Assembly: GCA_963778555.1 (NCBI GenBank)
Contig: CAVZUR010000005.1
Coordinates: forward strand, 97,756 to 161,755
DNA length: 64,000 bases
Origin: Candidatus Moraniibacteriota bacterium
GTDB taxonomy: Bacteria > Patescibacteriota > Minisyncoccia > Moranbacterales > UBA1568
Direction: 5' to 3'
Shown here: piece after piece, positions 5,702-36,414 of the stretch
Layout: each line of letters begins with the position of its first letter
Numbering within the stretch: position 1 is the first letter of the stretch
The notes under the pieces: generated by a model
Database searches by the model: none
Seen by the model: only the letters and a program-made list of their open reading frames with translations
Told to the model about the DNA's origin: nothing
Program-made: the position numbers and the translations under genes

Positions 5702-5967
5702 AGAGCCACGAGGCTGGCAGAAGGAATAGTCATGTCCTGGGAAGGGGCGGAAGCGCGGACACTTCTCCTCTCCCAGGACAGGATCATACCACCTGTCTAA
5801 AACTCAGGAAAAAAACTTTAACCAGTTTCCTGAGGCAGTGACATTCCGCGAAAGGCGCTTTTTCGAGAAGCGCTTTTTGCGTTACTTCTTATCTTAGAGG
5901 AGTTTGTCTCATTCTGGCAAATGAAATCATGCTATTTTCTAACCCGACTACCAACCTTACGACTAAA

Positions 5968-6003
5968 TGTAACATAATTCCACGGCCGTGGAATTATGGT
6001 ACA
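5968..6003. promoter_or_regulatory. 36-nt near-perfect palindrome, copy 1 (tgtaacataattccacggccgtggaattatggtaca)
   Basis: Self-complementary apart from one position. Located 13 nt downstream of the stop of the 6016-6576 gene, with a nearly identical copy at 6640-6675. Confidence 0.6.
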
Positions 6004-6015: not shown

Positions 6016-6576
6016 CTATTTCTGTTTAAAAAAATGACGCTTCAGGTGTTCTACATCATTGAGAGTGATCACTGTGGCCACTCGGACGTATGGTTCGGCG
6101 CCGTATAAGTGGACTAATTTCAAGATAGCCGACTCATACGGGTATGGGGAAACAAAGACGCTTTGTTGAAGTTTATAAAACTCCAATGTCTGGAGATGTT
6201 CACGCAGGACGTCTCGAAATGCTCGATTGGCTTCCGGAATATCGAAGAGAACCAGGCGCCACTTCTTATCCCACGCTTTCGGCTTTCTCAAATGGATAGA
6301 ATCACCGAAAAGGCTGAGTACTTGAGCTTCACGTTGACCCTCTTTGGTCAGCACTAAGCGGTACGAACCATCCGAAAGCTTCAATTCCCTAAAGAGTTTT
6401 TGGTGCGACAGCCGACGAAGAGAACGATTGAAACTTCGCTGGTCGATCTCCTTCCATCCGGCATGGGCGAGTCTGAGCGCTCTGAAATACTGAGCGGGGG
6501 ATTGAACTGCGCCGAGCGCCACCCCAGTCAAGAGCACAAGAAGAATTTTCTGCTGTACTGGACCGAATTTATACAT
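6016..6576 (-). CDS. PaaX-family-like putative transcriptional regulator
   Basis: 186 aa. The N-terminal region is winged-helix-like. The central motif KKWRLVLFDIPEANRAFRDVLREHLQTLEFYKLQQSVFVSPYP matches the W-x-L-V-x-FDIPE...R...LR..L...GF..LQ.SVW..P signature of PaaX-type regulators. Confidence 0.6.
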   Translation of the reverse strand: MYKFGPVQQKILLVLLTGVALGAVQSPAQYFRALRLAHAGWKEIDQRSFNRSLRRLSHQKLFRELKLSDGSYRLVLTKEGQREAQVLSLFGDSIHLRKPKAWDKKWRLVLFDIPEANRAFRDVLREHLQTLEFYKLQQSVFVSPYPYESAILKLVHLYGAEPYVRVATVITLNDVEHLKRHFFKQK

Positions 6577-6639: not shown

Positions 6640-6675
6640 TGTAACATAATTCTACGGCCGTGGAATTATGTTACA
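6640..6675. promoter_or_regulatory. 36-nt near-perfect palindrome, copy 2 (tgtaacataattctacggccgtggaattatgttaca); candidate operator
   Basis: Lies 64 nt upstream of the start codon of the PaaX-like gene, in its presumed promoter region. It differs from copy 1 at two positions. Confidence 0.6.
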
Positions 6676-6780
6676 TCGAACCCCCCCCACCCTTCCAGAG
6701 GGGGGGGCTATGAACTCACGCACCGATAGAGTAACAGTATCGTCAACACCCCCATCAAAGGCTTTTCAAAGCACCAGCGT

Positions 6781-7921: not shown

Positions 7922-8740
7922 CTATTTGTCAAGTAGCCCGAGATTATGTCGGATGACACTTCGAGTTTCCTCGAGACCGGCCGCGTAGAGGGCTGGATCA
8001 TTTCCCGGATACGCCCGGCCCCAATCAGTTGGGCTCATGTGTTCGCTTGCGAGGAGTGCGGTCTCTAGAGCCTTTCGAGCAGCTTCTTTTTCTCCAAGAT
8101 TGAGGAGCGCGGTACCATAAATGTTGTTCAGCCAGGGATTGCCGTGAGCCTGTCTGAGGCCGGCTGCTGCTGTGTCGCGAGTCTTTTCATACTCACCTAG
8201 CTTGAAGTAAATCCACGCCAAGTCGTTGTAGCCGGCCCAATTGAAGGAATCGCGTTTGATGAATTCGCTGAATCCCCAGATTGCGCTTTCATAGTCGCCT
8301 CTATATCCACTAATGAGCCCCTGCATATAGTAGGCCCGCTTGAATTCAGGATCTATACGGAGTACGGTGTCCATCTCAATCCGCGCCGATTCGAATCTTC
8401 CACTGATGAAATGGATGCGTCCGAGCTGGAAATGCGCTTCCAAAAAATCAGGATGTAATTCAATCGCTCTTGTGTAAGCAGACTCCGCTTTCTTAATGTC
8501 ATATGCTTCTCCATCCCCGAAATAGCTATCGCCGATTTTTAGAAACAGATCTGGATTGCTACGATTAACGAAAGTGGCAACCGTTTCCAACCCAAGACCG
8601 GGCCAGAAGGAATAGAGTTGCGGGATATGGAAACATGCGTAGGTACTGGAGAAAAGGGCAATAACAGTCCCAACCAACAGCACAGTGGAGGGCCTCATTT
8701 TGAGAGTCAGAGAAGTGATGGAATCCGTGATTTTATTCAT
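7922..8740 (-). CDS. Tetratricopeptide-repeat protein with an N-terminal membrane anchor
   Basis: 272 aa. TM segment VLLVGTVIALFSSTYACF, followed by repeated TPR-like units (A..Y..AI.L.P.F.EA...LG, YY.QG...G.Y..A...F, AW.YFKLGEYEKT). Confidence 0.75.
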   Translation of the reverse strand: MNKITDSITSLTLKMRPSTVLLVGTVIALFSSTYACFHIPQLYSFWPGLGLETVATFVNRSNPDLFLKIGDSYFGDGEAYDIKKAESAYTRAIELHPDFLEAHFQLGRIHFISGRFESARIEMDTVLRIDPEFKRAYYMQGLISGYRGDYESAIWGFSEFIKRDSFNWAGYNDLAWIYFKLGEYEKTRDTAAAGLRQAHGNPWLNNIYGTALLNLGEKEAARKALETALLASEHMSPTDWGRAYPGNDPALYAAGLEETRSVIRHNLGLLDK

Positions 8741-8807: not shown

Positions 8808-10277
8808 TCATGGGAACATATGCGGCAACGGATTCAGCTTCCACTCGGTGACACCTTTGGAAGCAGCGAATTCCTCCAAACGGTCGCTGTCGAAGGTGCC
8901 CTGGCACTCGAGGAGATAGAGGGGGAAAGCCTTCGGTACATAGACTTGGGCGATGTAGAACCCGAGCTTGGCTTGGATGGGATGCTTGGGGAAATAGGCA
9001 ATCGGGTAGTAGTCAGGGCCTCTTTTTCTCAGAACGGAGAGGCAGGCTTTCAGTTGGGTAGCATCATCGGTCGCTGAGGTGAGATCCTTTTGGCAGAGTT
9101 CCGCGTAGGAAACCTGCTTGCCGGAGAGGAACCACTGGAATTGCTGGATCTTTTCGGGACCGCGCCAGTAGAGTTGCCGTCCGATTTGACCGAGAACAGA
9201 AACGAATGGTTCGGATTGAGCATCCTTTTCCAGCTGCCGCTTATCACCCTCGTAATAAAACATTTCTGAGCTTATCACTATTTCTCTTAGAGAATGCCGT
9301 ATCGCTTGTTCGAATGTTGTCGCACTGGCGCCGCTCAGAACAATCTGAGGAGTCGCGCTCTTTGAGTTTAGGGCAGCAATAACGATAGACGGAATAGAGA
9401 GCGTTGTCACATCTACGATATGTAAAGACAGGCCGCATGATTCCAACGGGCGTATGATTTCCTGCATCTCCTCGGGGAGTGTTTCTACATCAATGATCCG
9501 CGGAGGAATCTGAGTGAGCCAGTGGACCAAGAATGCATCGCGCTCGATTGTTTCGAGGAGCCCACGCAGGAGAGCGCCATTTTTTGTGAAGTACCCGGCT
9601 GATCCGCTGGTCGTGGCGTTGACGAGAGGGGCTTCAGTGGAATAATTTTTGACGCACCATGAGGTCACTTGCCGCGGGATATACGTTTGTTCTTGCGTAA
9701 TGAGATTAATTCCACTCAGCCAATCCATCGGACGGGACGGGTCATGCTGGAGTTCCCGGTAATGCTCTCTTTGGATGTCCAAGAAGCGATGGTATTTCGG
9801 CGGGTAGAGTACTGGAAACTTTTTGAGCAGTTCGTTCGATGAAGCGATTAGTATGTCGGTATCCTTATTATACAAACCAGAAATGATGCGCTCAAGCATT
9901 TCGCCGATCGCTTTGGAAATAGCAGTCGCCCTATCTTTCGCAATCCCATGGCCGCTCACGCTCCGAAGATGTCCACGCACGACTACTTCTTTTTCCAGGG
10001 AATAAAAAAAGTATCCGGGAAAATGGAGACTTCTTTCTGCCATCGCATCGACGAGCCCTTTTTTTTTCAGATAAGTGTAAAGGGTTTCAGAGGCAGAGGT
10101 GACATCATCCGTGTGAGCAATATGCAGACTGTCCGCAAGCCAGGAATATCGGACGAATTGTTTTAATAAGCAAATCCGTATCCGATCGCCGATTCCCAGC
10201 GGTATTCGCCAGGGTCCGAACTTGTCCATAATTGGTTTCTTTCGTTTGATTTCGTCTGGTCTAACCGAATGTACCAA
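8808..10277 (-). CDS. YcaO-domain protein (cyclodehydratase-type), copy 1, intact
   Basis: 489 aa. VSGHGIAKDRATAISKAIGEMLERI (YcaO ATP/Mg motif region), TTSGSAGYFT, LLETIERDAFLVHW and the Pro-rich C-terminus NPLPHMFP (PxPxP-like). An alternative start MDKFGPW at 10229 aligns with the paralog. Confidence 0.8.
   Translation of the reverse strand: MVHSVRPDEIKRKKPIMDKFGPWRIPLGIGDRIRICLLKQFVRYSWLADSLHIAHTDDVTSASETLYTYLKKKGLVDAMAERSLHFPGYFFYSLEKEVVVRGHLRSVSGHGIAKDRATAISKAIGEMLERIISGLYNKDTDILIASSNELLKKFPVLYPPKYHRFLDIQREHYRELQHDPSRPMDWLSGINLITQEQTYIPRQVTSWCVKNYSTEAPLVNATTSGSAGYFTKNGALLRGLLETIERDAFLVHWLTQIPPRIIDVETLPEEMQEIIRPLESCGLSLHIVDVTTLSIPSIVIAALNSKSATPQIVLSGASATTFEQAIRHSLREIVISSEMFYYEGDKRQLEKDAQSEPFVSVLGQIGRQLYWRGPEKIQQFQWFLSGKQVSYAELCQKDLTSATDDATQLKACLSVLRKRGPDYYPIAYFPKHPIQAKLGFYIAQVYVPKAFPLYLLECQGTFDSDRLEEFAASKGVTEWKLNPLPHMFP
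8815..9178. repeat. Identical tract A shared in inverted orientation with 13299-13661 (364 vs 363 nt)
   Basis: The reverse complement of 8815-9178 matched 13299-13661 base for base where I compared it. The only difference is one C missing from a C5 run in the second copy (C4 at 13552-13555). Confidence 0.85.
9670..9919. repeat. Identical tract B shared in inverted orientation with 12544-12793 (250 nt)
   Basis: The reverse complement of 9670-9919 equals 12544-12793 by eye. It encodes AFSKAIGEMLERIISGLYNKDTDILIASSNELLKKFPVLYPPKYHRFLDIQREHYRELQHDPSRPMDWLSGINLITQEQTYIPR in both paralogs. Confidence 0.85.
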
Positions 10278-10425: not shown

Positions 10426-11241
10426 TCAATTACTTGCAGCGGCAGATTCCTTTTGGAAGACCGTGCTGTTTTGCCCATCACTCCCGCCATAACCGGCCCA
10501 CAGCTCATCGCCATGATTGGTGAAATAACATGTTCCACCCGCTCCCCCGCAGGGGAAAGCGAATTTCCCGTCCTTGATCTCTGCGGACTGGATCTTGCCG
10601 CTTGGTTTTTGCTGTGTGCCGTATATGAATTTGACCACACACTTCGCGTCGATTTCGCCGATCCAGAGCCACCGCTTGCCATAGCCCCAGTTTCCTGTCC
10701 AGCCACCGATGAAGGCGGCACAGGCTACTGGCACGTCGGCAGCCACCGGCTTGACCGAAAAGCCAGCTTCACGCTGAGGTTGCAAAGCCGCCAATTCTGT
10801 TTCGGCAAGTTTTCGGATGCTGACCGCCCGGGACTGTCCATTTGCGTCCGTGATAGTCCCGTTAAACGTGCCGTCTGGGTTTTGGGATGCTACGACCTTG
10901 CCCCCCAATCGGGTAATAAGCGATAACGTACGACCTTGAGCGGTCTCAATCATCTCTGCGCTAATCGGGAGCGGTTGCAGTCTCGGAAGACCGAGAGCAG
11001 CGTTGAGCGCGACTTTTCCAGTGTCGCCTTGTTTCGTTCCGCCAGAAAGCTGCAACGTCAGTGTTCGGTCGCTGCCGACGACCGTAATGAGCCATGAAGA
11101 GTTCAGATCGAATGGCAGCTGACTTGTCAGTGCCGCCAGAGTGATACTGTCGCTAGAGGCCTTCATCTGGGCGAAGCCAATGCTTGGCAGGCTGGAAAAA
11201 ACAGAGAAAAAAACCGAAAAGAGAATCGAAAGTGCCCGCAT
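10426..11241 (-). CDS. Secreted protein of unknown function
   Basis: 271 aa with a signal-peptide-like N-terminus, MRALSILFSVFFSVFSSLPSIGFAQ. No motif recognised. It sits between the two YcaO genes and is divergent from the SagB-like gene. Confidence 0.7.
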   Translation of the reverse strand: MRALSILFSVFFSVFSSLPSIGFAQMKASSDSITLAALTSQLPFDLNSSWLITVVGSDRTLTLQLSGGTKQGDTGKVALNAALGLPRLQPLPISAEMIETAQGRTLSLITRLGGKVVASQNPDGTFNGTITDANGQSRAVSIRKLAETELAALQPQREAGFSVKPVAADVPVACAAFIGGWTGNWGYGKRWLWIGEIDAKCVVKFIYGTQQKPSGKIQSAEIKDGKFAFPCGGAGGTCYFTNHGDELWAGYGGSDGQNSTVFQKESAAASN

Positions 11242-11397: not shown

Positions 11398-12141
11398 ATG
11401 CATACATTTCTCTACAATTTTTTTCATCACGAGACCAATGATCGGACGGAAAAGGGCCTGGTGAGTATTCCGGCAGACAAGGGGCGCTGGCCGGAGTCAT
11501 GGAAAACGATAACGTGCAAACGGTATTCTCTGTTTCCGGAGGTTGAGCTTCCTGAAACGAGCGGGTCTTTGTTTGAGCAGCTCTTGCGAGAACGCAGATC
11601 GAGCGAAGGGCATATCGTGGGGAATATCCTCACTCTGCCCGTACTTGCCTATATCCTGCAGTGTGGGTATGGCCTGCAGGGCGGGAGCGAAGGAGATCAG
11701 AGGAAAGCGAACCGAACCGTTCCTTCCGGCGGGGGACGATATCCGCTCGAAGTGTATGTTTTTCTCTTCAAGCCGATTGGCACTTGCGTTTCGGGAATCT
11801 ATCATTACAGTGTGAAGCATCATTCCTTGGAACCAGTTGCGCTCATGCCATTCACGCTTGAAGATATTGGTTCTTTCGCACCGGAGCAGGCGTGGCTCCA
11901 GGATACGAACGGGATGATTTGCATCACGAGTGTGTTTCAGAGAACGGTTGAAAAATACGGCAGCCGCGGGTATCGCTACATCTTGCTGGAGGCTGGGCAT
12001 GCTGCTCAGAATATGCTGCTCGCCGGAACCGAAAAGGGCGTGAACATCATCCCGATTGGCGGCGTAGAGGCTGATAAAATAGAAAAAAAACTTGGCCTGA
12101 GCGGGGAAGAAGAAGGGGTCGTGTATACGCTCTTTTTATAA
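11398..12141 (+). CDS. SagB-type (nitroreductase-fold, FMN) dehydrogenase
   Basis: 247 aa. RTVPSGGGRYPLEVYVF, GIYHYSVKHHSLEPV, QRTVEKYGSRGYRYILLEAGHAAQNMLLAG and IPIGGVEADKIEKKLGLSGEEEGVVYTLFL match the SagB/ThcOx dehydrogenase signature (R..PS.G..YP.E.Y; KYG.R.YRY.L.EAGH..QN). Confidence 0.8.
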   Translation: MHTFLYNFFHHETNDRTEKGLVSIPADKGRWPESWKTITCKRYSLFPEVELPETSGSLFEQLLRERRSSEGHIVGNILTLPVLAYILQCGYGLQGGSEGDQRKANRTVPSGGGRYPLEVYVFLFKPIGTCVSGIYHYSVKHHSLEPVALMPFTLEDIGSFAPEQAWLQDTNGMICITSVFQRTVEKYGSRGYRYILLEAGHAAQNMLLAGTEKGVNIIPIGGVEADKIEKKLGLSGEEEGVVYTLFL

Positions 12142-12152: not shown

Positions 12153-13668
12153 ATGCGGAGCGACTCCTCTTCAAAATTTTTCCATTGCTCGGGATACCTC
12201 TCCCTTAGGGAGTATGTGGAGGATATCGAGTCGATGAGGCAGCATGGCCCGTGGCGGCTCCCGCTCGGCATCGGCGACCGGGTGCAGATTTTCTTTTTCT
12301 CCCTGATTCTGAAATACTCCTGGTTTTCTGATGCGTTGAGCATACGGTATCCCTATACGTGGAGCCCAGCGTATTCGGTGCTCATCGCCTATCTGAAAAG
12401 GTGTGGCGTAGTCGATGTGGTCCGGGAGCAGAATGCGAATCGCAGCGGATATTCCTTCTTCTCCCTTCAAAGGGGCATTTCCATAAATGAAAATATTCGG
12501 ACCATCGGCGGTCTGGGAGTCGACCAAGAGGTCTCGACGGCGTTTTCCAAAGCGATCGGCGAAATGCTTGAGCGCATCATTTCTGGTTTGTATAATAAGG
12601 ATACCGACATACTAATCGCTTCATCGAACGAACTGCTCAAAAAGTTTCCAGTACTCTACCCGCCGAAATACCATCGCTTCTTGGACATCCAAAGAGAGCA
12701 TTACCGGGAACTCCAGCATGACCCGTCCCGTCCGATGGATTGGCTGAGTGGAATTAATCTCATTACGCAAGAACAAACGTATATCCCGCGGCATATTGTT
12801 TCGTGGTTTGGGTTTGCCGAAGCGCGCGTGTTCAAAGACATTCTCCTGCATCCGACATCCAATGGCTGTGCCGGGTACTTTACGAAGACGGGTGCTGTTT
12901 TGCGAGGGCTGATCGAAGCAGTGCAACGGGACGCTTTTCTCGTCCATTGGCTCACGCAGATCGCCCCTGATCGCATCATCGAGGACACTCTGTCGCTAGA
13001 AATTCAGAAACAAGTCGGGGAATTCAAGGCGCGTGGAATCACCCTGCATATTCTCGATGTCACAGCTCTTTCTATCCCGTCCGTATCCATTGTGGCAATC
13101 AATGCTGAATCGGAAACTCCGCAGATTATTTTGAGCGGCGCAGAGCGGCGACATTTGAGCGGGCGGTGCAGGACGCACTCCGTGAAATGGTGCTGATGTC
13201 AGCGACTATGTTCTACCAAGGAGAAGCTAATAATAGAAAGAAAGAGCCTATGTTAGCAGAGCCGCAGCCATTCGTTTCTGATCTCAATGAGAAAACCAGG
13301 CAACTCTACTGGCGCGGTCCCGAAAAGATCCAGCAATTCCAGTGGTTCCTCTCCGGCAAGCAGGTTTCCTACGCGGAACTCTGCCAAAAGGATCTCACCT
13401 CAGCGACCGATGATGCTACCCAACTGAAAGCCTGCCTCTCCGTTCTGAGAAAAAGAGGCCCTGACTACTACCCGATTGCCTATTTCCCCAAGCATCCCAT
13501 CCAAGCCAAGCTCGGGTTCTACATCGCCCAAGTCTATGTACCGAAGGCTTTCCCCTCTATCTCCTCGAGTGCCAGGGCACCTTCGACAGCGACCGTTTGG
13601 AGGAATTCGCTGCTTCCAAAGGTGTCACCGAGTGGAAGCTGAATCCGTTGCCGCATATGTTTTCTTGA
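12153..13668 (+). pseudogene. YcaO-domain protein, copy 2, interrupted by two 1-nt deletions (about 13141-13147 and 13552-13555)
   Basis: ORFs 12153-13196 and 13166-13642, plus a third frame to the stop at 13666-13668, together reconstruct a full YcaO colinear with copy 1. IILSGA|AATFERAVQDALREMVLMSATMFY requires a +1 shift. KAFP|LYLLECQGTFDSDRLEEFAASKGVTEWKLNPLPHMFS requires another, at a C4 run that is C5 in copy 1. Confidence 0.75.
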
Positions 13669-13777: not shown

Positions 13778-14470
13778 ATGTTTCAGAAAGTCAGGCGAGT
13801 TGCGAGCAGAAAACTCCTGTTTCTTGTTGGCGTATCTTTGGCCGGTATCCTTGGCATCCTGGGCAGTTATACGCGGACGAACTATTCGAAAAGCGGTTCG
13901 CTGGTTGTCCCAAAGGCGCAGGCGGATACCCCTCCCACTTGTGCTTCGTGCGGTTGCGCCTATACTGAGGACCAATGCGTTACATACTGGTCCTGTTTTC
14001 CGGCCGACACGCCTATCAGCACACCAGCCGGTAAGCGAGTCATACAGGAGCTGGCGGTCGGAGACAGCGTGCTTGGTTTCGACATTGAAACCGGCCGGAC
14101 CGGAGAATACCCGGTGACCAGAACCTTCAAACACGGCCGAAACGATGCGAATACCGTGTATTCTCCGCTGATTCAGATTACGCATGCAAAAGGATCGTTC
14201 CTCGCGACGGATAATCATTGGATCTATCGGCGCAATGGCCGGGTCGGGGAATACGCCAATTTTGACCGTGTCGGAACGCTTCAAGTCGGTGACATGCTGA
14301 CGACAGAAAGCGGCGAAGAGGTGGCGGTGACAGCGATCGAACCGGGGCCCGAGTATGATTTTGTGTACAATCTCGAGGTGGCGGAGGCCCATACGTATTT
14401 CGCTAGCGGTATCCGGGTACACAATAGCGGCAGTGGACCTGGTGGCTGTTGTGGCTCTTCAGGAAAATAA
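13778..14470 (+). CDS. Small membrane-anchored Cys/Ser/Gly-rich peptide interrupted by a complete Hint/mini-intein domain
   Basis: 230 aa from the ATG at 13778 (the ORF track starts at a TTG at 13682). Residues 1-72: basic N-terminus, TM LLFLVGVSLAGILGILG, then TPPTCASCGCAYTEDQCVTYWS. Residues 73-216: Hint domain. Residues 217-230: SGSGPGGCCGSSGK. Confidence 0.8.
   Translation: MFQKVRRVASRKLLFLVGVSLAGILGILGSYTRTNYSKSGSLVVPKAQADTPPTCASCGCAYTEDQCVTYWSCFPADTPISTPAGKRVIQELAVGDSVLGFDIETGRTGEYPVTRTFKHGRNDANTVYSPLIQITHAKGSFLATDNHWIYRRNGRVGEYANFDRVGTLQVGDMLTTESGEEVAVTAIEPGPEYDFVYNLEVAEAHTYFASGIRVHNSGSGPGGCCGSSGK
13994..14425 (+). other. Mini-intein / Hint domain (144 aa) with all canonical class-1 splicing residues
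   Basis: Cys1 (CFPADTPISTPAG), block B TxxH (LATDNHWIY), C-terminal blocks EYDFVYNLEVAEAHTYFASGIRVHN, and a +1 Ser. No homing-endonuclease insert is present. Confidence 0.8.
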
Positions 14471-14534: not shown

Positions 14535-15761
14535 ATGGAAACTGAAGCCGATATCCGAACTCCCGCTGGAGACTCGAGGGAGAAAAATAAAAAGATTCGG
14601 TTGACCGGAAAAGTCGTTCTTGTTGTCATGCTAATAGTCGCCCTTGCATATGGGGCGTTGTATTTGTTCGAGAAGAATACCTGGTATAAATTGAGATCCG
14701 ATCGGACAATTTATACACCGGCCAATGATAACGCGTATACCGAAAGTCTCCTAAATAATAATCCGAAGCTATTGCAGGATTCGTTTGTGGCCGATGTCGA
14801 AAGCGGAGTGAATGATAAGTTTACCAAGTCAGATGCCTATTTCCTGACCCACCGGTACTTTGATAACGGCGGAAATGTCTACGAAATCTATGATTATGTA
14901 AACAGCCATCCGAGTCTGGAATTTCTCAAGGAAGCCGAAGAAATTTACCCGGCTATTTTTGATCAGCTACGGACCAAAACGCTTTCCCCGGTGCCATATT
15001 CCAGGCAATCTCTGTATGCAGTTCTGGCATATCTGGAAGTACTTGATAAGCACGGGTATGCGGATATCGCCGCTCTGGGCACGCTCGCTAATCAATATGC
15101 GAAGACGGCCTATTTCATAAAAAAGAGATCAGAAAACGATCCTGCTGGTGGCTTGGATCCGGCTCCAATGATACGGCAAGCGACGGAAAAAGCGATTGTG
15201 TTCGAATTGAAAACCAGAGATGTGATGCTGGGAATGTCTAAGGGTAATCAGTCTCTCGTGAAAAGTATAGCGAGTCGACCGAAATCGCTTGATTCGAGAT
15301 CGCCTCTGCGGAAGAATTTTTCGAAGGAAATAACAGCCCAATCATTGATTACCGGACTTAATCAGTATGCCGCCTGTCTTCGATATTTGGAGGTCACGGG
15401 AATTGCCATCTCGATCATCGATTCACCCGTGCAAGCGAATGATGTTTTTTCCTTCAGCATGTTATTTGCAGAAACCTATGTTCCAGAAATGGAGGTATTT
15501 ACGTCGCTCCTCAATGCCTCGACGCTCGCTTTGGTGAGTCCGGAGAGTGCTGATGCTATCAAGACTGCTCTCCAACCGATTCTGGAGTACGATCTTACTC
15601 AAGAATTGGGGATAATTCGCCTTCTCTTTGAGGCGAAGGACGACAAATTCGGCGGCTGGGATATATATGGAAAAAGGAATGCCATAATGCTGGCCAATAT
15701 CGTTCCTGAGTTCAAGGCATGGCTTATTGCGGGAGGGTGGGAAGAACCTGATTTTCAGTAG
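14535..15761 (+). CDS. Membrane-anchored protein of unknown function
   Basis: 408 aa. N-terminal TM VVLVVMLIVALAYGALYLF followed by a mostly helical soluble region. No motif recognised. Same strand as, and immediately after, the Hint gene. Confidence 0.7.
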   Translation: METEADIRTPAGDSREKNKKIRLTGKVVLVVMLIVALAYGALYLFEKNTWYKLRSDRTIYTPANDNAYTESLLNNNPKLLQDSFVADVESGVNDKFTKSDAYFLTHRYFDNGGNVYEIYDYVNSHPSLEFLKEAEEIYPAIFDQLRTKTLSPVPYSRQSLYAVLAYLEVLDKHGYADIAALGTLANQYAKTAYFIKKRSENDPAGGLDPAPMIRQATEKAIVFELKTRDVMLGMSKGNQSLVKSIASRPKSLDSRSPLRKNFSKEITAQSLITGLNQYAACLRYLEVTGIAISIIDSPVQANDVFSFSMLFAETYVPEMEVFTSLLNASTLALVSPESADAIKTALQPILEYDLTQELGIIRLLFEAKDDKFGGWDIYGKRNAIMLANIVPEFKAWLIAGGWEEPDFQ

Positions 15762-15875
15762 ACATTCACTGAGATTGATTGTTGATTCTCAGTCGTTCGG
15801 CGGAGTGGTTTCGTTGTGTTTTTAATGCAGAAAAGTGTAGAATGGGAACACTCTTAATCGATATTTTTCTTTTCT

Positions 15876-16571
15876 ATGAAGACGGTTTTGATTATCGGAG
15901 GGTCTTCGGGGATTGGAAGCGCCTGCGTACGTACTTTCGAACAATCAGGGTGGAATGTTTTTTCCACCTTCTATTCAAATAAAAAAACAACCAGCAAAGG
16001 ATCTTCCGTCACCTGGAGCTTCCTAGACATAAAGAATATTCCAGCTGGTTTTTTTGATACCCTGCCAAAAATCGATGCGGTGCTAATTTGTGCTGCCAAA
16101 AATGTAAGCCAGGACCTGAATAATTTACAGAAGAGTGACACAGAGGAAATTGTAAACACGAATCTCATCGGACAGATTGAGTTCATCAAACTCCTCAAGG
16201 ATAAAAAGGGTGCGGAGCTGTCCTCGATAGTACTTTTCGGCTCGACCGTGCCAATGACAGGTTTTAAAAGAAGAATCGCTTACGGTATAACGAAAGCCGC
16301 GATAGAGGGCCTTACGAAAACGCTGGCAATGGAATTTTCCCCCAATACCCGCGTGAATTGCATTGTACCGGGATATATCAAGACAGGTTTGTATTTCAAA
16401 AATAGCGCTATCAGTGATACGGATAGAGCAAGGAAAATCCTTTTAGGGCGGTTGGGCGACCCGGAAGAGGTTGCAAAACTTGCCTTTTTCCTATCTTCGG
16501 AAAACGCTTCCTATATAAACGGAGAATCGATTGGGATTAATGGCGGTTTTAACTATGAGTATGAAGTCTAG
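15876..16571 (+). CDS. Short-chain dehydrogenase/reductase (candidate ribulose-5-P reductase half of a split CDP-ribitol synthase)
   Basis: 231 aa. LIIGGSSGIGSA (TGxxxGxG-type NAD(P) site) and YGITKAAIEGLTKTLA (YxxxK). It overlaps the downstream cytidylyltransferase gene by 17 nt. Confidence 0.75.
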   Translation: MKTVLIIGGSSGIGSACVRTFEQSGWNVFSTFYSNKKTTSKGSSVTWSFLDIKNIPAGFFDTLPKIDAVLICAAKNVSQDLNNLQKSDTEEIVNTNLIGQIEFIKLLKDKKGAELSSIVLFGSTVPMTGFKRRIAYGITKAAIEGLTKTLAMEFSPNTRVNCIVPGYIKTGLYFKNSAISDTDRARKILLGRLGDPEEVAKLAFFLSSENASYINGESIGINGGFNYEYEV

Positions 16572-17247
16572 CAATGGTAAGTTTGCGTGTATAATTCTTG
16601 CTGCAGGCAAGTCCGAAAGGTTTAATGCGAATAAACTCTTTGCGACCCTTACCAAAGGACCCCTTCTTTTTATGGTTGTCGATTCCATTTTATCTTTTAA
16701 GTTGCTTGGTAAGTTAGTGATTGTCGCAGCGAAGGGGGATTTTGATCGAATTCAGAAAAGATATGGACGGAATCAAGAAGTGAACGTCGTTGTCGGTGGA
16801 ATAAACCGAACGGAAAGCACGCTACGGGGCCTGCATGTTGTCGCACAGGGGGGATACGAATATGTCTATGTTCACGACGGATCTCGCCGACTCTTTACGA
16901 GAAATGATTTTATCCGGCTCAAGAGAGAGTTGCTGTCAAAGAATCTGGATGGAGTTGTCCAATATGTCAAGATATACGATTCGCTCATGAGTTTCGATGG
17001 GAGTATTGAAAACAACAATAGTTATCTCGACAAAACGAGGGTAGTGCAATTAAAGACACCCCACGTTTACAAAGTGGGTTCAATCTTAAAATGTCTGACT
17101 CAGTATAAACCTCAAGTCAGGAGAGAATTGGAGAACGTTGAAATCATGTCTTTGTACGGGAAAGAAATAGGATTTATCGATGGTTCTATCGCCAATATAA
17201 AAATTACTTACAAAAGTGATTTACGGGTCATTAAAAAGCTGTTGTGA
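16555..17247 (+). CDS. IspD/TarI-family sugar-phosphate cytidylyltransferase
   Basis: About 230 aa from the ATG at 16555. CIILAAGKSERF (ILAAGxGxR P-loop-like motif), VHDGSRRL. Its stop overlaps the GTG start of the next gene (gtga at 17244-17247). Confidence 0.7.
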   Translation: MSMKSSNGKFACIILAAGKSERFNANKLFATLTKGPLLFMVVDSILSFKLLGKLVIVAAKGDFDRIQKRYGRNQEVNVVVGGINRTESTLRGLHVVAQGGYEYVYVHDGSRRLFTRNDFIRLKRELLSKNLDGVVQYVKIYDSLMSFDGSIENNNSYLDKTRVVQLKTPHVYKVGSILKCLTQYKPQVRRELENVEIMSLYGKEIGFIDGSIANIKITYKSDLRVIKKLL

Positions 17248-19388
17248 AAAAGATATCTTTCGTCGTCTATTATCCGTATCAGTGGTTTATCTATCGGAAT
17301 ATCTATAGACAGATACCGGCTGACAAGCGGGAAGTCATCGTTGATCTGAGCGATAATCCGGGACTTCAGGATGAGGAAGTAAGGATGAGCATCGCTTCTT
17401 TGCTTCAACGAGAGAGCGTTCCGTTTCGGGTCCTCGAGAAAGTGATTTGTTTCAATCGGAAACTGCTTCAGGATTTTTTCACTGATGTCGAGGTCATCGT
17501 ATCTTGCTGGGAAAACGGTTGCGTGTCGAACAATGCCCTGCGACATATTAAAAAAGTAAACGTGACTTACGGAATAGCCAAAGAATTGACGATGCTCCGG
17601 CCAACGCGTTCGATCTACGATGTCATATTGGCGTATGGCGCGCGTGATCAGCGGTATTTCGAATTGCTCACGAAATCCATAGCCATCGGTAATCCGCGAC
17701 TGGACAATTATTACCGTGGCATAGCTGATGATTCCATTCGGGAAAAACTGTCAAGATATTTCAAAGATAAAAAAAAGAAAACCATACTGTATGTTCCGAC
17801 TCACGGAGATCTCGGGTCATTTCATGAAATGTTACCTACGTTCGCACGGATATCGAGACAATATAATATCATTTTTAAGCCACACTATTATACTTTGAGG
17901 GAGGAGAAAGAGATTATAGAAAAGTACCGGCAGATAGAGTCGCTTTTGGTCATCGATGACACGTGGGACACGATTGAAGTTATGTCCGTAAGCGATATCA
18001 TCGTGAGCGATAACTCGAGCGCTATTTTCGATGCGATGCAGATCGATAAGCCGTTAATCGTATGTGATTTTCTGGATAATCAATTTATAGATACTATTCA
18101 TAAAAAAATCCGTCTTGCAAAAAAAGGAACGGGAATACTTACGGCGCTGACGTATTCAGACAGTTTGGAACAGGAGATAAAAAGAGGAGGTCTAGCAATG
18201 ACCATAAAAAAACCGAATGATATTGATGACCTTCTGGAAAACATAGATGACACAGACGGCCGGTATCGGGACTTTCGGAAAGAAATCGTTGCTGCGAATT
18301 TCAAATATGTTGATGGTCATTCGTCTGAAAGAGCTGTCGAGATCATTCTGCGAATATACGGCACGAAGAGGACGCATGTGCCGGGTATCCTGCACCATGC
18401 ATACCTCGCGTATAATAACCGAGCGTATCAATGGAGTATCGAATCTGAACACAAGGAAACTGTCCTTACGACTGTCCCGAGTACGACCATTGTCTGGATT
18501 TTCTGCGAGTTGCGTCAGAAGAATGATGAGATTATATGCACCATCTACTCAGCATTGAACGAAAAGGAGGTCACCACAGTCTGTGTTTCGGGGAGTGTCG
18601 GAAAAGATGTGCGTGACACTCTTTCACGGAGTGAATTCTCTGACAGGATTATATTTTTTGAAAATCATGCAGACGGGATAAATCTTGTTTATTCGCGGCT
18701 CGGCATCTGCGATAACCTTCTTGTGGTGAAGGCGAATACTATTATCAAAGACTTGAATACGATATGTAACTTCAAAGTATCCTGTAAACGAGACATGATC
18801 TTTTTTTCTGAAAATATTGTTCCTTTTCCAGAAAATTGGGTAAGCCGACTCTTTTATCAGTTGAAATATGAGATGCTTGGCTTTCGGAGTCTGGCAATGA
18901 ATACGCTGCTCTCTATCCCGTATGAGTTGATCTGTGCTTCCGAAAAGTGCGCCGTTCTCATCGATAGTAAGGCCCTGCTTGCTGTTTCACCACGGCCGGT
19001 TGTAGACACTTTTATCTTCGAGTGGGTTCTTTCGTCTTTTATTAACATTGATTCATTGAAAAGTCAGGGTCGCGATTTTTATGGTACGCTCTGCGATGAT
19101 TATATCCTTATGCCGAATTTCTTCATGAATGGTAGCCGGTCGGCCAATGCGGATATTATTAACAAACTTGTGGCAAAAGGACTGATATTGAATGCTTTAG
19201 GTATCCCCATAAAGCGGTGGCCGGATAAAAAAATCGGTAAACTGCTGTGGAAAATCGCGACTGGCGACTTCAGGCGCTATCAACTCTTGAAATTGATACT
19301 GTTGAAGGTGCTCACTGTGAAAAAGCAAGTATTTCTCAGCAAAGCCCGTTCTTTTTTGGAGAAGGTTTACGCAGATGACGCCCCATAG
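17244..19388 (+). CDS. CDP-alcohol (glycerol/ribitol) phosphotransferase, TagB/TagF/TarL family, with a ~330-aa C-terminal extension
   Basis: 714 aa. ILYVPTHGD, FKPHYYT and VSDIIVSDNSSAIFDAMQIDKPLIVCDFLD match the Glyphos_transf pattern (YaPT.R / KpHp / DYSS..fD....KP). The C-terminal half is unassigned; it may be a degenerate GT-A-like region, but I could not confirm this. Confidence 0.7.
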   Translation: MKKISFVVYYPYQWFIYRNIYRQIPADKREVIVDLSDNPGLQDEEVRMSIASLLQRESVPFRVLEKVICFNRKLLQDFFTDVEVIVSCWENGCVSNNALRHIKKVNVTYGIAKELTMLRPTRSIYDVILAYGARDQRYFELLTKSIAIGNPRLDNYYRGIADDSIREKLSRYFKDKKKKTILYVPTHGDLGSFHEMLPTFARISRQYNIIFKPHYYTLREEKEIIEKYRQIESLLVIDDTWDTIEVMSVSDIIVSDNSSAIFDAMQIDKPLIVCDFLDNQFIDTIHKKIRLAKKGTGILTALTYSDSLEQEIKRGGLAMTIKKPNDIDDLLENIDDTDGRYRDFRKEIVAANFKYVDGHSSERAVEIILRIYGTKRTHVPGILHHAYLAYNNRAYQWSIESEHKETVLTTVPSTTIVWIFCELRQKNDEIICTIYSALNEKEVTTVCVSGSVGKDVRDTLSRSEFSDRIIFFENHADGINLVYSRLGICDNLLVVKANTIIKDLNTICNFKVSCKRDMIFFSENIVPFPENWVSRLFYQLKYEMLGFRSLAMNTLLSIPYELICASEKCAVLIDSKALLAVSPRPVVDTFIFEWVLSSFINIDSLKSQGRDFYGTLCDDYILMPNFFMNGSRSANADIINKLVAKGLILNALGIPIKRWPDKKIGKLLWKIATGDFRRYQLLKLILLKVLTVKKQVFLSKARSFLEKVYADDAP

Positions 19389-19454
19389 TTGTTGAAAGGA
19401 TGACCTAAGGCAGGACAACCAGACTTGAGAATTATGTGCTAGAATGGTCGTAAT

Positions 19455-20888
19455 TTGGCTGAAATGCCATCTCAGAATACATCAATTCCCTCAGATACGA
19501 TAACCGCACGCATCCCTATGGAGATGAAAGGAGTGATAAAGGATAATCAAAATCCTCGGGCCTCGATAGGCATTCTTTGCTCCTTCCTTCCGTTTTTTTT
19601 CGTCTTCGAAAAGGTCTATAAGAATTTGGAAAATGTTGAATTTATTCTTGATTTTACGACTCTCCCCATTGGAATTCCCTATCCAGAGTGGTATAAGGAA
19701 CGAATGCGAAAGTATTTTACAAATCAAAATGTTTATTTTCGCGATCTTGAAGCAAGCAATTTTACCCCGGCAGAGTTTTTTTCGAAATACCACACATTGG
19801 TAAGTGGATCTTTTGATGGTCTGATGGCGCATAAGTGCAATCAAACCAAAAAAAAAGTGCGAGTGATGTATGGCCTCGCCAAAGACCTCAATAGTTTTTC
19901 TCTCACAAATACGCATTTCGACCTGGTAGCATGTCCCTCGGAGTATGTCGCTAAGAGAATGCAAGATCTATGCGGTGTTCGTGTCGCGGTGACCGGTGAT
20001 CCCAAATATGATCGCTACATTCTTGATGCCTCGCCAACACCGCCAAGTATAGAGGAAATTCTAAAAGCGAGTCAGGGCAAGAAGATCGTCTTATTTGCTC
20101 CGACATGGGGGAATCTTTCATCTGAGAAAAGAATCCTCCCCGTTCTTGTGGAGCTATCTCAAAAATATACTGTTTTCTACAAGCCGCATCACATGACAAT
20201 GATATCCCAGTCAGAGGTCATTAAAGACTTCGACAGGATTTCGGATATTCACATAATCTGGGACGATGTGAGTTTCATGGATATGTTGAAGAAAGTCGAT
20301 GTGGTAATCACGGACAATAGCAGCGCTATATTTGACACCATCATTGTTAAAAAACCTCTAGTCCTTATTGATATCACGGTTGAGGGAAAATTTCCTTATG
20401 CAAAATCCCCATTCTATTCTTTTCGGGGGGGGAAATTCGGTGGTGTTTCTACATCACTTGAGAGTCTCGAGCAGGTAGTGAAGGTAGAGGGCCGGGAAAT
20501 TGCTCCAGTAGTACGGCTTTCAAAAAAATTGATTGAGGATACGTTGCCACCACTTGCGACTGCTATCGAAGCGGCAATTGAATCAGCCGGGGGGTTAATT
20601 TATTTGGAACGGCAAAAGCAGGTATTGAATGATTATTCGGGAGTGATTGACGGAAAAGCGGGGGAGCGCATTGCAAGTGAAATCCAATATATGGTCGATA
20701 ATTACGTAGAAGATTCCAAAAGCGCGCTTGAACCATATGTGTATGACTTTCAGCATAAAGTACGCGAGGAGGATCGGGACGTATTTGATTGGGAAAACCA
20801 GGATAGGTTGGATGAACAAAAGATATTGAACATACGGCGGTTACCAATGGTTGAAAAGGTTAAAAAAATCATAGAATTATTCTATTAG
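19455..20888 (+). CDS. CDP-alcohol phosphotransferase, TagB/TagF/TarL family (second copy)
   Basis: 477 aa. KKIVLFAPTWGN, VFYKPHHMT and VDVVITDNSSAIFDTIIVKKPLVLIDI. An ATG at 19464 is an alternative start. Confidence 0.7.
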   Translation: MAEMPSQNTSIPSDTITARIPMEMKGVIKDNQNPRASIGILCSFLPFFFVFEKVYKNLENVEFILDFTTLPIGIPYPEWYKERMRKYFTNQNVYFRDLEASNFTPAEFFSKYHTLVSGSFDGLMAHKCNQTKKKVRVMYGLAKDLNSFSLTNTHFDLVACPSEYVAKRMQDLCGVRVAVTGDPKYDRYILDASPTPPSIEEILKASQGKKIVLFAPTWGNLSSEKRILPVLVELSQKYTVFYKPHHMTMISQSEVIKDFDRISDIHIIWDDVSFMDMLKKVDVVITDNSSAIFDTIIVKKPLVLIDITVEGKFPYAKSPFYSFRGGKFGGVSTSLESLEQVVKVEGREIAPVVRLSKKLIEDTLPPLATAIEAAIESAGGLIYLERQKQVLNDYSGVIDGKAGERIASEIQYMVDNYVEDSKSALEPYVYDFQHKVREEDRDVFDWENQDRLDEQKILNIRRLPMVEKVKKIIELFY

Positions 20889-22860
20889 CATATGTCGAAG
20901 GGCCTGTCTGTTTCTGTCGTTATCCCTACTCTGAACGGCCTTCTTAAATCAGATATTGTTTTGTACAGTCTGGAAAGACAATCCTATCTCGTGAATATCG
21001 TCGAGGTGATCATCGTTGATGACGCATCGAACGATCCTGAAAAAAAAGTACGGTATGAACTGATACAGGATCGGTTCTCTCGTTTGAATGTCGTGGTGTT
21101 GTTTCATGAAAGGAATACCGGCCCCGCTGGTGCTCGCAATACCGGGGTAAAAAAAGCGAAGGGGGATGTGATTTTTTTTACCGACGATGATTGCGAATTG
21201 CCGTCGAACTGCATCGAAGAACATCTCAAGATATATGCTGCCCACCCCTCCGTCAGTAGTGTCGGCGGATGGTACAAACCGTATGATAACGATATTCGGG
21301 ACAGTCTCTATCAAACATACATGATGATTCATGTTCTGAATTATTCTTCCCTGTTCCATCAGTCGATCTCTTGTTCTCCCGAAGGTTTCGCATTTCCCGC
21401 GGTGAATACCGCCAATCTCTCAGTCCGACGGCACGTATTCAGTCAGGTTCAATTTGATGAAGATTTTACAACCCCCAGTTATGAGGACAGATTTTTCTCC
21501 GAAAGCATCCGGAGGGCTGGATATACCATGTACTACTTCCCCCTCTTCATTTTTCACCGAAAAAAATTGAATCTGAGAGGATTTATTCGACTTGCTATGA
21601 ATAAAGGGATGGGCCGGTATGTTTACTATGGGAAGCACGGAGTACTAGATTCTCAAGCGTTCGATGCCGTTCTGAGAAAGCGCGATTTGATCAGGCGATT
21701 ATCCTTGACTAACTCGCAGATCCGGAAAAGAAAATGGAGACTTTTTGTGTTAGTTTACGCATGGTATTTCCTGGAAAGTTCCCACATTATGAAAGGATAT
21801 TACGAGCGTGCATATGTCAGAAGAATGGGATATTATCCAGGTTCTCTGTAGGTATTGCGATGAGAGCAGCGGAGATAAAAAAATCATAGAATTATTCTAT
21901 TAGCATATGTCGAAGGGCCTGTCTGTTTCTGTCGTTATCCCTACTCTGAACGGCCTTCTTAAATCAGATATTGTTTTGTACAGTCTGGAAAGACAATCCT
22001 ATCTCGTGAATATCGTCGAGGTGATCATCGTTGATGACGCATCGAACGATCCTGAAAAAAAAGTACGGTATGAACTGATACAGGATCGGTTCTCTCGTTT
22101 GAATGTCGTGGTGTTGTTTCATGAAAGGAATACCGGCCCCGCTGGTGCTCGCAATACCGGGGTAAAAAAAGCGAAGGGGGATGTGATTTTTTTTACCGAC
22201 GATGATTGCGAATTGCCGTCGAACTGCATCGAAGAACATCTCAAGATATATGCTGCCCACCCCTCCGTCAGTAGTGTCGGCGGATGGTACAAACCGTATG
22301 ATAACGATATTCGGGACAGTCTCTATCAAACATACATGATGATTCATGATAGGAGCGCTTACGGAAATCTTCTTTACTACCCGTCCGCCTCTCGTCTCCC
22401 CGAGGAGTCTAAGTTCCCGGCGATAAATACCGCCAATCTCTCAGTCCGACGGCACGTATTCAGTCAGGTTCAATTTGATGAAGGCTTCATAGCACCGGGG
22501 TATGAAGATCTATTTTTCTCCGAAAGCATCCGGAGGGCTGGATATACCATGTACTACTTCCCCCTCTTCATTTTTCACCGAAAAAAATTGAATCTGAGAG
22601 GATTTATTCGACTTGCTATGAATAGAGGGATGGGCCGGTATGTTTACTATGGGAAGCACGGAGTACTAGATTCTCAAGCGTTCGATGCCGTTCTGAGAAA
22701 GCGCGATTTGATCAGGCGATTATCCTTGACTAACTCGCAGATCCGGAAAAGAAAATGGAGACTTTTTGTGTTAGTTTACGCATGGTATTTCCTGGGTAGC
22801 TCCAGCGTTATGAAAGGATATTACGAGCGTGCATATGTCAGAAGAATGGGATATTATCCA
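20861..22860 (+). repeat. Tandem duplication with a 1015-nt period (unit 1 at 20861-21839, unit 2 at 21876-22860)
   Basis: The duplicated unit begins with the last 30 nt of the upstream TagF-like gene (taaaaaaatcatagaattattctattagcatatg at 20861 and 21876). It is identical to 21333/22348 and diverges completely over 21334-21404 vs 22349-22425. A second patchy difference lies at ~21458-21495. Confidence 0.9.
20892..21851 (+). CDS. Family-2 glycosyltransferase (tandem copy 1)
   Basis: 319 aa. VSVVIPTLNG, IIVDDASND, GPAGARNTG and FFTDDDCEL (DxD) are the GT-A/GT2 hallmarks. Confidence 0.8.
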   Translation: MSKGLSVSVVIPTLNGLLKSDIVLYSLERQSYLVNIVEVIIVDDASNDPEKKVRYELIQDRFSRLNVVVLFHERNTGPAGARNTGVKKAKGDVIFFTDDDCELPSNCIEEHLKIYAAHPSVSSVGGWYKPYDNDIRDSLYQTYMMIHVLNYSSLFHQSISCSPEGFAFPAVNTANLSVRRHVFSQVQFDEDFTTPSYEDRFFSESIRRAGYTMYYFPLFIFHRKKLNLRGFIRLAMNKGMGRYVYYGKHGVLDSQAFDAVLRKRDLIRRLSLTNSQIRKRKWRLFVLVYAWYFLESSHIMKGYYERAYVRRMGYYPGSL

Positions 22861-22875
22861 AAATTTATTTCGTAA
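21907..22875 (+). CDS. Family-2 glycosyltransferase (tandem copy 2)
   Basis: 322 aa. The first 147 aa are identical to copy 1, followed by a replaced segment, then near-identity again. Confidence 0.8.
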   Translation: MSKGLSVSVVIPTLNGLLKSDIVLYSLERQSYLVNIVEVIIVDDASNDPEKKVRYELIQDRFSRLNVVVLFHERNTGPAGARNTGVKKAKGDVIFFTDDDCELPSNCIEEHLKIYAAHPSVSSVGGWYKPYDNDIRDSLYQTYMMIHDRSAYGNLLYYPSASRLPEESKFPAINTANLSVRRHVFSQVQFDEGFIAPGYEDLFFSESIRRAGYTMYYFPLFIFHRKKLNLRGFIRLAMNRGMGRYVYYGKHGVLDSQAFDAVLRKRDLIRRLSLTNSQIRKRKWRLFVLVYAWYFLGSSSVMKGYYERAYVRRMGYYPKFIS

Positions 22876-23065
22876 CAGTAGACTGACAGAAATTACCAGG
22901 AAACAAAGAAATGTACCCTGGGTGCGTCTTTCCCGTCTTAATGATTTGATGTGATATCTTGCCACGGCGCATCATATCTGATAGCTTGGAAACGTCCAAT
23001 TTGAACCATTGGAGACGTTCTTTGAACAATGCCTATTCTCAACCAACGTGCTGGAGGATAACATC

Positions 23066-24034: not shown

Positions 24035-24057
24035 ATTGCCAGTTGGGAAGCGGTAGC

Positions 24058-24095
24058 GGGTCACTGCAGAAGATGCGGTGACCCATTTTATTTTA
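24058..24095 (+). terminator. Rho-independent terminator after the Bug-family gene
   Basis: Stem gggtcac/gtgaccc (24058-24064 / 24078-24084) followed by attttatttta. Confidence 0.5.
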
Positions 24096-24116
24096 AGGCG
24101 GGAGTATTATATTCCG

Positions 24117-25430: not shown

Positions 25431-25472
25431 TCGATATTTTTCAAAAAAAACCAGATTCTATAGCACCGACCG

Positions 25473-27869: not shown

Positions 27870-27882
27870 TATTTGATATTTT

Positions 27883-36400: not shown

Positions 36401-36414
36401 ACTGATACGAGGCT

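Follow-up and report, generated by a model that had tools for sequence, protein, structure and literature searches.

Precursors of peptides synthesized on ribosomes and then post-translationally modified (RiPPs) normally consist of a leader and a core, and separate proteases free the product. In clusters for linear azol(in)e-containing peptides (LAPs; also thiazole/oxazole-modified microcins, TOMMs), especially that of microcin B17 (McbA/BCD), genes for a YcaO protein and a SagB-type dehydrogenase adjoin the gene for a small Gly/Cys/Ser-rich precursor. We find the same association in a 64,000-nucleotide stretch of the genome of a Candidatus Moraniibacteriota bacterium (contig CAVZUR010000005.1; hereafter the window), where the open reading frame (ORF) at 13778..14470 (+) encodes a 230-residue protein that carries a Hint domain. 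We consider that this ORF probably encodes the precursor peptide of a LAP cluster of the type present in the candidate phyla radiation (CPR), with a self-processing bacterial intein-like (BIL) type A/PT-HINT domain embedded in its product-forming region. CPR clusters combining a YcaO, a nitroreductase and a precursor of about 84 residues have already been reported (Sharrar et al. 2020, PMC7298704), and the accessible portion of that paper makes no mention of a Hint domain.

The locus departs from described LAP/TOMM systems in several ways. Its precursor has a 144-residue Hint domain, placed within the core or adjoining it, its leader contains a transmembrane (TM) helix, its conserved partner is a helical-repeat protein, here called p408, and its operon is without an E1-like/Ocin-ThiF partner, an ABC exporter or a recognizable leader peptidase. 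A first-pass annotation of this DNA, prepared without database searches, knew of no described RiPP class organized in this manner; we likewise found none in the open-access literature on intein, Hint or BIL domains with YcaO proteins, RiPPs or precursor peptides. A LAP precursor carrying a BIL domain within its product region is therefore new with respect to the accessible literature and the family libraries.

Among self-processing domains the closest counterparts are type A BIL domains (Amitai 2003; Dassa 2004; reviewed in PMC4031507). They share with the present domain a length of about 140 residues, an N-terminal Cys, a TxxH block, a C-terminal His-Asn and a +1 residue that is often non-nucleophilic, and their hosts are exported, variable bacterial proteins; the closest solved relatives are 2LWY and 6Y75/6TMM. 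They differ in that the host here is a putative RiPP precursor of about 70-150 residues rather than a large secreted protein, in that Hint-less orthologues of this host exist, as for true inteins, and in that the +1 residue is mostly Ser/Thr in the window's subgroup. Class 1 mini-inteins resemble the window protein in its four splicing blocks (A, Cys1; B, TDNH; F/G, VYNLEV..HTYFA.G.RVHN), its +1 Ser, its lack of an endonuclease and the existence of intein-free host homologues. However, sequence affinity to these inteins is weaker, neither the +1 nucleophile nor the insertion point is conserved, and the host is no conserved housekeeping protein.

A three-part protein in a conserved gene order

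Translation and hydropathy bear out the three-part layout proposed in the first-pass annotation, with its basic N-terminus and TM helix: an N-extein of 72 residues, a Hint domain of 144 and a Gly/Cys/Ser-rich C-extein of 14. The N-extein, which has five Lys/Arg among its first 12 residues, runs from MFQKVRRVASRK through a TM helix at about residues 13-31 (Kyte-Doolittle peak 2.12) and YSKSGSLVVPKAQAD to a stretch reading ...AQAD-TPPTCASCGCAYTEDQCVTYWS up to the Hint junction. The exteins present six Cys, six Ser and four Thr within 36 residues, and two patterns, CxxCGC(P/A)(W/Y)T.xQCxxY(W/Y) in the N-side core and GGC(C/S)GSSGK in the C-side tail, are conserved across the window's subgroup. 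An N-terminal leader and a Cys/Ser/Thr-rich core, which define a LAP precursor, are both present in this protein adjoining the enzyme genes.

A first search returned 13 homologues of 215-258 residues with the same layout and 45-80% identity; genome and metagenome scans and a whole-library hidden Markov model search brought the total to 25 distinct homologues, which fall in the Patescibacteria/Moraniibacteriota. Clustered at 50% identity, about six clusters with this layout occur among 1.84 billion representatives. Since the architecture is shared by 25 homologues, it is conserved and does not reflect a chance ORF. Furthermore, L049, assembled independently from the short reads of a different run (Logan ERR11593397), encodes an identical protein.

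Each related locus whose upstream flank is long enough shows the order SagB-YcaO-Hint gene-p408; these are the window, L007, L009, L010, L011, L012, L015 and L016. YcaO lies directly 5' of the Hint gene in L050 and L051, the former also having p408 on the 3' side, and the contigs of L001, L003 and L005 start with a remnant of the YcaO C-terminus. The homologous Hint genes of these loci are, indeed, syntenic with YcaO/SagB genes, so that the complete lack of synteny that would have refuted the first-pass annotation does not occur. The gaps of the conserved operon measure about 12, 110 and 65 nt and leave no room for another small ORF. Across 17 loci, Hint-containing and Hint-less forms taken together, the peptide is strictly associated with SagB-YcaO.

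Hint-less orthologues in the precursor slot

Distant members of the p408 family, namely those of L042 (a Kaiserbacteria metagenome-assembled genome) and L043/L044, were chosen for inspection. Their clusters comprise, in order, a tetratricopeptide repeat (TPR) protein on the minus strand, (a beta-propeller protein), SagB, YcaO (sometimes two), a small ORF and p408. The small ORFs in this slot encode 81-88 residues with a basic N-terminus, a TM helix and the motif YSK(S/E)xS...(P/S)T(A/V)HAD, which is followed by a Gly/Asp-rich stretch that ends G(D/E)GCGGCSG. Across L042, L043/L044, L045 and L047 the peptides in the precursor slot are Hint-less, 79-88 residues long and equipped with the same leader. 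Built from nothing but the exteins and the small-ORF peptides, a profile retrieved 11 more Hint-less peptides of 70-105 residues; the two that were checked (L045, L047) both lie in the precursor slot. Neither Pfam nor NCBIfam holds a family for these peptides.

When the two window exteins are joined (72+14 = 86 residues), they align end to end with the Hint-less peptides, and the GGCCGSSGK of the C-extein aligns onto their GCGGCSG core (alignment A3). The presence of Hint-less orthologues in the same slot and this end-to-end alignment therefore identify the host as the precursor peptide of the cluster. Taken with the synteny, they make the window host very probably the RiPP precursor of the adjoining YcaO/SagB genes, as the first-pass annotation had supposed; its alternative, an unrelated BIL-type surface protein, was right as to the BIL class and wrong as to the lack of relation, the exteins being homologous to Hint-less precursors. 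On the same alignment, the Hint domain reads as an insertion in or beside the precursor core. The Hint-less core G(D/E)GCGGCSG is near the GGGCGGCSNG of the microcin B17 precursor McbA (PMC11476732), with GCGGCS common to both. These features define a CPR-specific LAP system with a TM-anchored leader, a microcin-B17-like GCGGCS core and a p408 partner. The tiny genomes and episymbiotic lifestyles of CPR bacteria make any secondary metabolism that they retain ecologically interesting.

Class and catalytic residues of the Hint domain

The top Pfam match of the window protein is PT-HINT (PF07591; E=1.1e-14), which at 55.3 bits exceeds its cut-off of 27.7; Hint_2, Hint and Intein_splicing match more weakly, and TIGR01443, the NCBIfam model of the intein C-terminal region, scores 25.3 bits against a cut-off of 15.6. 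With TIGR03605 likewise above its cut-off and PF02624 at E=4e-38, these profile searches uphold the early assignment of Hint, SagB and YcaO proteins. Set against the PDB, the family profile gives E-values between 1e-11 and 1e-9 for the BIL domains 6Y75/6TMM, 8W20 and 2LWY, and of no less than 2e-4 for true inteins. Judged by these profiles, the domain is nearest to the BIL type A/PT-HINT class rather than to true inteins, and its initial description as a complete mini-intein is not the most fitting one.

The Cys1, TDNH block, terminal VHN and +1 Ser noted at the outset are all present, at Cys73, T144-D-N-H147, V-H215-N216 and Ser217, and are near-invariant in the family except for the +1 residue. 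Cys1 is found in 25/25 homologues, the TxNH of block B in 24/25 and the terminal His-Asn in 24/25, at identities down to about 45%; the domain is 141-144 residues long throughout, and the catalytic positions are invariant within alignments A1 and A2. The window protein has the N-terminal Cys/Ser, TxxH and C-terminal His-Asn of class 1 inteins; its family shows the variable +1 residue, N-terminal TM anchor and highly variable exteins of type A BILs. Among the 25 homologues the +1 residue is Ser (10), Thr (2), Tyr (2), Asp (3), Gly (1), Lys (3) or Arg (4), or is absent (1).

Because the catalytic residues are near-invariant in 25 homologues, self-processing chemistry appears to be under selection; their near-invariance, combined with a variable +1 residue, makes self-excision of the Hint domain likely and indicates that canonical splicing is not obligatory for the family. 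Type A BILs form an N-terminal thioester and cyclize the terminal Asn, yield mostly cleavage products and can, less efficiently, splice via aminolysis without a +1 nucleophile (PMC4031507). In the window protein Ser217 makes canonical splicing chemically possible. The notion of a splicing-gated precursor is accordingly too narrow, splicing being only one of several possible outcomes: the +1 residue is Ser/Thr in 12/25 homologues, and because some C-exteins have 0-3 residues, splicing would add almost nothing in those proteins.

Three arrangements of core and Hint domain

The insertion point relative to the core motif differs between subgroups, falling after, within or before the core. In group A (P0013, P0148, P0149, P0151, P0152, P0156) the leader and a GCGGCS-type core precede the Hint domain, which is followed by 0-3 residues (KY, KL, DS, DGS); P0149 ends ...RVHA and has lost the terminal Asn. 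Group B, to which the window protein belongs, has a leader, a Cys-rich core 1, the Hint domain and a Gly/Cys tail of 11-30 residues. In group C (L009-L012, L016, P0147) a Cys-free leader is followed by the Hint domain, RNGGFFIPTASAD and a Gly/Asp/Cys tail of 65-76 residues; PTAxAD, a leader-like motif, recurs behind the domain. At least two Cys flank the Hint domain, on one side or the other, in all 25 Hint-containing proteins. The set of Hint-less, core-Hint, core-Hint-core and leader-Hint-core precursors forms a natural experiment on the contribution of the domain.

A rough neighbor-joining tree of the Hint domains places most of the precursor Hints in a single clade with group A at its base, and in an equally rough tree of p408 the Hint-containing loci are not monophyletic. 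This suggests one main acquisition of the domain followed by remodeling of the exteins, with possible losses or transfers. A compositional mark of recent insertion was looked for by comparing GC content between the domain and its exteins, and none was found (0.556 in the Hint domain, 0.53 and 0.57 in the exteins).

PT-HINT (PF07591) polymorphic toxins offer a parallel to groups B and C in their order of N-terminal trafficking element, Hint domain and variable payload. They differ in that the payload here would be a modifiable peptide of 11-76 residues and not a folded toxin domain, in that the payload of group A lies upstream of the Hint domain, and in the absence here of Rhs or filamentous repeats. 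No toxin or immunity family was detected by Pfam or NCBIfam beside or within the 230-residue protein, whereas the distant relatives L019-L035 do have a polymorphic-toxin architecture. The nearest Hint relatives outside the family (40-47% identity) are L017 4011-9407, L018 5899-8358, P0146 and P0162, whose Hint domains stand at the very N-terminus of tail-tip proteins of the phage GpJ-like type, with Gly-run flanks and a non-nucleophilic +1 Gly. We considered P0146 as an unusually close relative and rejected it, its high score arising from two tandem Hint domains that are each about 40-42% identical.

Proposed maturation

From the chemistry of these families, YcaO (ATP-dependent cyclodehydration) and SagB (FMN-dependent oxidation) would turn Cys and Ser of the flanks into thiazol(in)es and oxazol(in)es. 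The Hint domain would remove itself through an N-S acyl shift at Ser72-Cys73, giving a thioester, and through cyclization of Asn216 to a succinimide, cutting the C-junction. Ser217 would allow canonical splicing to an 86-residue peptide resembling the Hint-less precursor. Alternatively, the 14-mer SGSGPGGCCGSSGK would be freed by uncoupled cleavage, the usual course with type A BILs, and the N-side core would stay on its membrane anchor, where it could be cut later at AQA|D, a site that fits the -3/-1 rule of signal peptidase. Since the two termini of the Hint fold meet at its active site, one may also speculate that the folded domain could present either flank to YcaO, which would explain a core on either side.

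We propose, tentatively and with less assurance than the precursor assignment itself, that self-excision of the Hint domain is built into the maturation of an azole-modified peptide as a programmed step, assembling the core by splicing or freeing it by cleavage from a membrane-anchored precursor. If true, the embedded BIL domain would take the place of a leader peptidase or an exporter-coupled protease, and it might act as a folded handle showing both flanking cores to a partner-less YcaO. Such an internal, self-removing follower or leader would be a new logic of RiPP precursors and would add a new principle of RiPP maturation. It would also be the first natural link of intein-type and YcaO chemistry, which both run via related cyclic (oxy)thiazolidine-type intermediates. 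It would furthermore constitute a natural counterpart of engineered intein tools (SICLOPPS, expressed protein ligation) and a handle for making azole peptides without a dedicated protease.

Weighing the alternatives

Several observations weigh against an embedded, self-processing LAP precursor. The operon YcaO is frameshifted twice in this assembly and, should the frameshifts be real, only the inverted paralogue could act; that paralogue scores 150 bits with TIGR03604 (SagD-type), under the cut-off of 219. Neither an E1-like/Ocin-ThiF partner nor a RiPP recognition element (RRE) was found by Pfam and NCBIfam among the conserved cluster proteins scanned, and a profile of the conserved N-terminal ~120 residues of YcaO, examined for an RRE, matched nothing in the PDB. 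Stand-alone YcaOs exist in other systems, however, and the absence of a partner does not exclude function. The positive-inside rule places the Hint domain and the cores outside the membrane, and YcaO and SagB are without signal sequences; modification would for this reason have to precede export. With a +1 Ser/Thr confined to part of the homologues, splicing is no family-wide requirement. Lastly, an AF2 structure model from a 13-sequence alignment reached a pLDDT of 55.6, too poor for an active-site check or a fold search, so that the Hint classification rests on sequence profiles.

The alternative that survives best, although we regard it as unlikely, is a selfish or neutral insertion, in which the Hint domain has no role in maturation and persists by excising itself and regenerating a precursor of the Hint-less type. 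Hint-less precursors do serve clusters of this type in a far larger number of genomes (more than 134 p408 family members, as against about six Hint-containing clusters at 50% identity), the joined exteins resemble a Hint-less precursor in all three architectures, Hint-containing loci are not monophyletic in the p408 tree, and the location of the nearest outside relatives (40-47% identity) in phage GpJ-like tail proteins suggests a mobile source. Yet the domain has no homing endonuclease, we know of no mobile BIL domains, and a +1 residue that is often non-nucleophilic would make precise restoration inefficient. The exteins have diversified around the domain, with a new CxxCGC...QC motif and the leader-like motif FFIPTASAD in duplicate, as selection on the Hint-containing form would lead one to expect; in GC content the domain matches its flanks, and most precursor Hints form a single clade.

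Slightly less likely again is a Hedgehog-like process. Here the conserved task of the Hint domain would be neither splicing nor release of the C-terminal tail but activation of the C-terminus of the upstream core; the N-junction thioester would be attacked by water, by an internal Cys or amine to form a macrocycle, or by a lipid or cell-wall acceptor, and the domain would be discarded. Group A lends itself to this reading, its order of signal or anchor, cargo and Hint domain at the extreme C-terminus being that of Hedgehog/Hog proteins: a whole GCGGCS-type core lies upstream, only 0-3 residues follow, P0149 lacks the terminal Asn, only N-junction chemistry can matter, and the group is basal in the Hint tree. 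The cluster, moreover, often adjoins teichoic-acid-type genes (TagF-like, IspD-like, SDR). Against this, that neighborhood is absent in L002, L042 and L043, and the terminal His-Asn is kept by all but one homologue, including proteins with C-exteins of 2-3 residues. The Hint domain is not followed by a sterol- or adduct-recognition region, the C-extein of the window protein looks functional, and in group C the N-extein is Cys-free while the Cys lie in the C-extein of 65-76 residues, so that the product must be downstream.

It is improbable that the peptide is no substrate at all, but a Cys/Gly-rich surface peptide on a membrane anchor, with a role such as metal binding or disulfide linkage, that only shares an operon with YcaO and SagB while these act on another protein. 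The TM leader, unlike known LAP leaders, the predicted position of the core outside the cell, the lack of an RRE or partner among the conserved cluster proteins scanned and the CxxC-type spacing of the N-side core would all fit such a role. They are opposed by the strict co-occurrence with SagB-YcaO, the resemblance of the core to the pharmacophore region of McbA and a conserved operon without an alternative small substrate gene; in addition, azoline oxidation in RiPP pathways is, to our knowledge, the sole task of SagB-type dehydrogenases. A BIL-type surface protein unrelated to YcaO/SagB and lying beside them by chance would suit a BIL/PT-HINT class typical of secreted, variable bacterial proteins, but is effectively refuted by the Hint-less orthologues, whose homology to the exteins, together with synteny in every informative locus and the lack of a nearby YcaO where more distant homologues of the domain (<=47% identity) belong to polymorphic-toxin-like proteins or to tail proteins of the phage GpJ-like type, leaves it a negligible probability.

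The genes of the cluster

Coordinates of the precursor and its neighbors are collected in Table 1. SagB precedes the precursor on the same strand, as first described. For YcaO that description needs amending: the intact copy lies on the minus strand and the same-strand copy is frameshifted.

Table 1 Parts of the putative precursor and genes of the surrounding cluster, in window coordinates
Feature	Position	Strand	Basis
TPR membrane protein, divergent neighbor at upstream cluster edge	7922..8740	-	multiple Pfam TPR families; N-terminal TM
Intact YcaO paralogue, 489 aa	8808..10277	-	PF02624 E=4.1e-38
271-aa predicted secreted protein, accessory cluster member	10426..11241	-	signal-peptide-like N-terminus
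SagB-type FMN dehydrogenase (azoline to azole)	11398..12141	+	TIGR03605 E=3.3e-31, 108 bits vs cut-off 78.4; Pfam Nitroreductase E=6e-15
Operon YcaO cyclodehydratase, two 1-nt deletions in this assembly	12153..13668	+	PF02624 E=4e-27 (N-terminal part); positional orthologue
Leader/anchor, residues 1-50: basic N-terminus, TM helix, YSKSGSLVVPKAQAD motif	13778..13927	+	hydropathy; motif common to Hint-less peptides, there ...YSK(E/S)xSL..(S/P)TAHAD
N-side core, residues 51-72, TPPTCASCGCAYTEDQCVTYWS, 4 Cys	13928..13993	+	pattern kept in window subgroup
Hint domain, BIL type A/PT-HINT class, residues 73-216	13994..14425	+	PT-HINT, TIGR01443, PDB matches
C-side core, residues 217-230, SGSGPGGCCGSSGK, with stop codon; +1 residue Ser217	14426..14470	+	translation
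p408, membrane-anchored all-alpha helical-repeat protein, always next gene after precursor	14535..15761	+	confident structural model

By tblastn, the plus-strand YcaO spans frames 1, 3 and 2 in succession. Both deletions fall in short G/C runs (GCGCC to GCGC at about 13141/13142; C5 to C4 at 13552-13555), and restoring the two bases yields a stop-free protein of 505 residues that is 57% identical to the YcaOs of L007 and L015. Its C-terminus is NPLPHMFS, as in relatives; the YcaO family ends NP(L/R)PH(M/P)F(S/P), which we take to resemble the C-terminal PxPxP motif of azoline-forming YcaOs. The L049 contig begins 146 nt upstream of the precursor, inside the repeat, and does not reach either frameshift site.

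The intact and the repaired YcaO are 66% identical overall and have tracts in common at 8922-9178 = 13299-13555 (257 nt, 100%), 8808-8927 = 13549-13668 (120 nt, 97%) and 9670-9975 = 12488-12793 (306 nt, 92%), a pattern indicating recent gene conversion between the inverted paralogues. The YcaO repeat explains why short-read assemblies of this and related genomes (L001-L006, L008, L013, L014 and L049) break off at most a few hundred bases before the Hint gene, on its upstream side. Two YcaO genes are also present in some Hint-less clusters (L043 1788-3377 and 6164-7597; L047 1468-3045 and 5776-7278), where, unlike the recent duplicate of the window, the second is an old divergent paralogue (~25% identity). 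Clusters with two YcaOs may perform two different modifications.

In L009, L010 and L016, as in the Hint-less loci L042, L043 and L045, a homologue of the TPR protein is encoded upstream of SagB. The 271-residue protein, which has no match in Pfam or NCBIfam, has homologues inside the same clusters in L015, L043, L045 and L047. For p408, which has a single N-terminal TM anchor, there is no Pfam family; clusters such as those of L010, L012 and L042 have 1-3 paralogous copies of it, and its family is confined to the CPR among the named matches. We rejected the possibility that the Hint domain stands in for a gene exclusive to Hint-less clusters, as a PQQ-type beta-propeller and p271-like proteins occur in both kinds. 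A scan for promoters and terminators inside the operon gave nothing above shuffled expectation.

Other features of the window

A second self-cleaving module is predicted at 1481-5629 (+), where a 1382-residue repeat protein rich in Thr, Gly and Ala contains, at residues 1038-1098, an intramolecular-chaperone autoprocessing domain of the Peptidase_S74 family; two overlapping same-strand ORFs (635-1318, 985-1818) precede it. Near-identical palindromic repeats of 36-37 nt (TGTAACATAATTCCACGGCCGTGGAATTATGGTACA) at 5967-6003 and 6640-6676 flank a gene with a PaaX-like/Cas2-like domain at 6016-6576 (-).

Downstream of the cluster, from about 15800 to 28000, GC content falls to 0.42-0.44 (window mean 0.52) in a block with teichoic-acid-type functions. 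It holds genes for a short-chain dehydrogenase/reductase (SDR), an IspD-like cytidylyltransferase, two TagF-like glycerophosphotransferases and family-2 glycosyltransferases. Several related contigs, though not all, show the same synteny between this block and the precursor operon. Two tandem family-2 glycosyltransferases (20892-21851 and 21907-22875, +) are identical over their first ~147 residues and divergent in their middles, which marks them, on this comparison, as another recent duplication or conversion in this genome. Further along, at 35031-38241 (+), several adjoining or overlapping ORFs carry C-terminal T4SS-pilin domains (PF18895).

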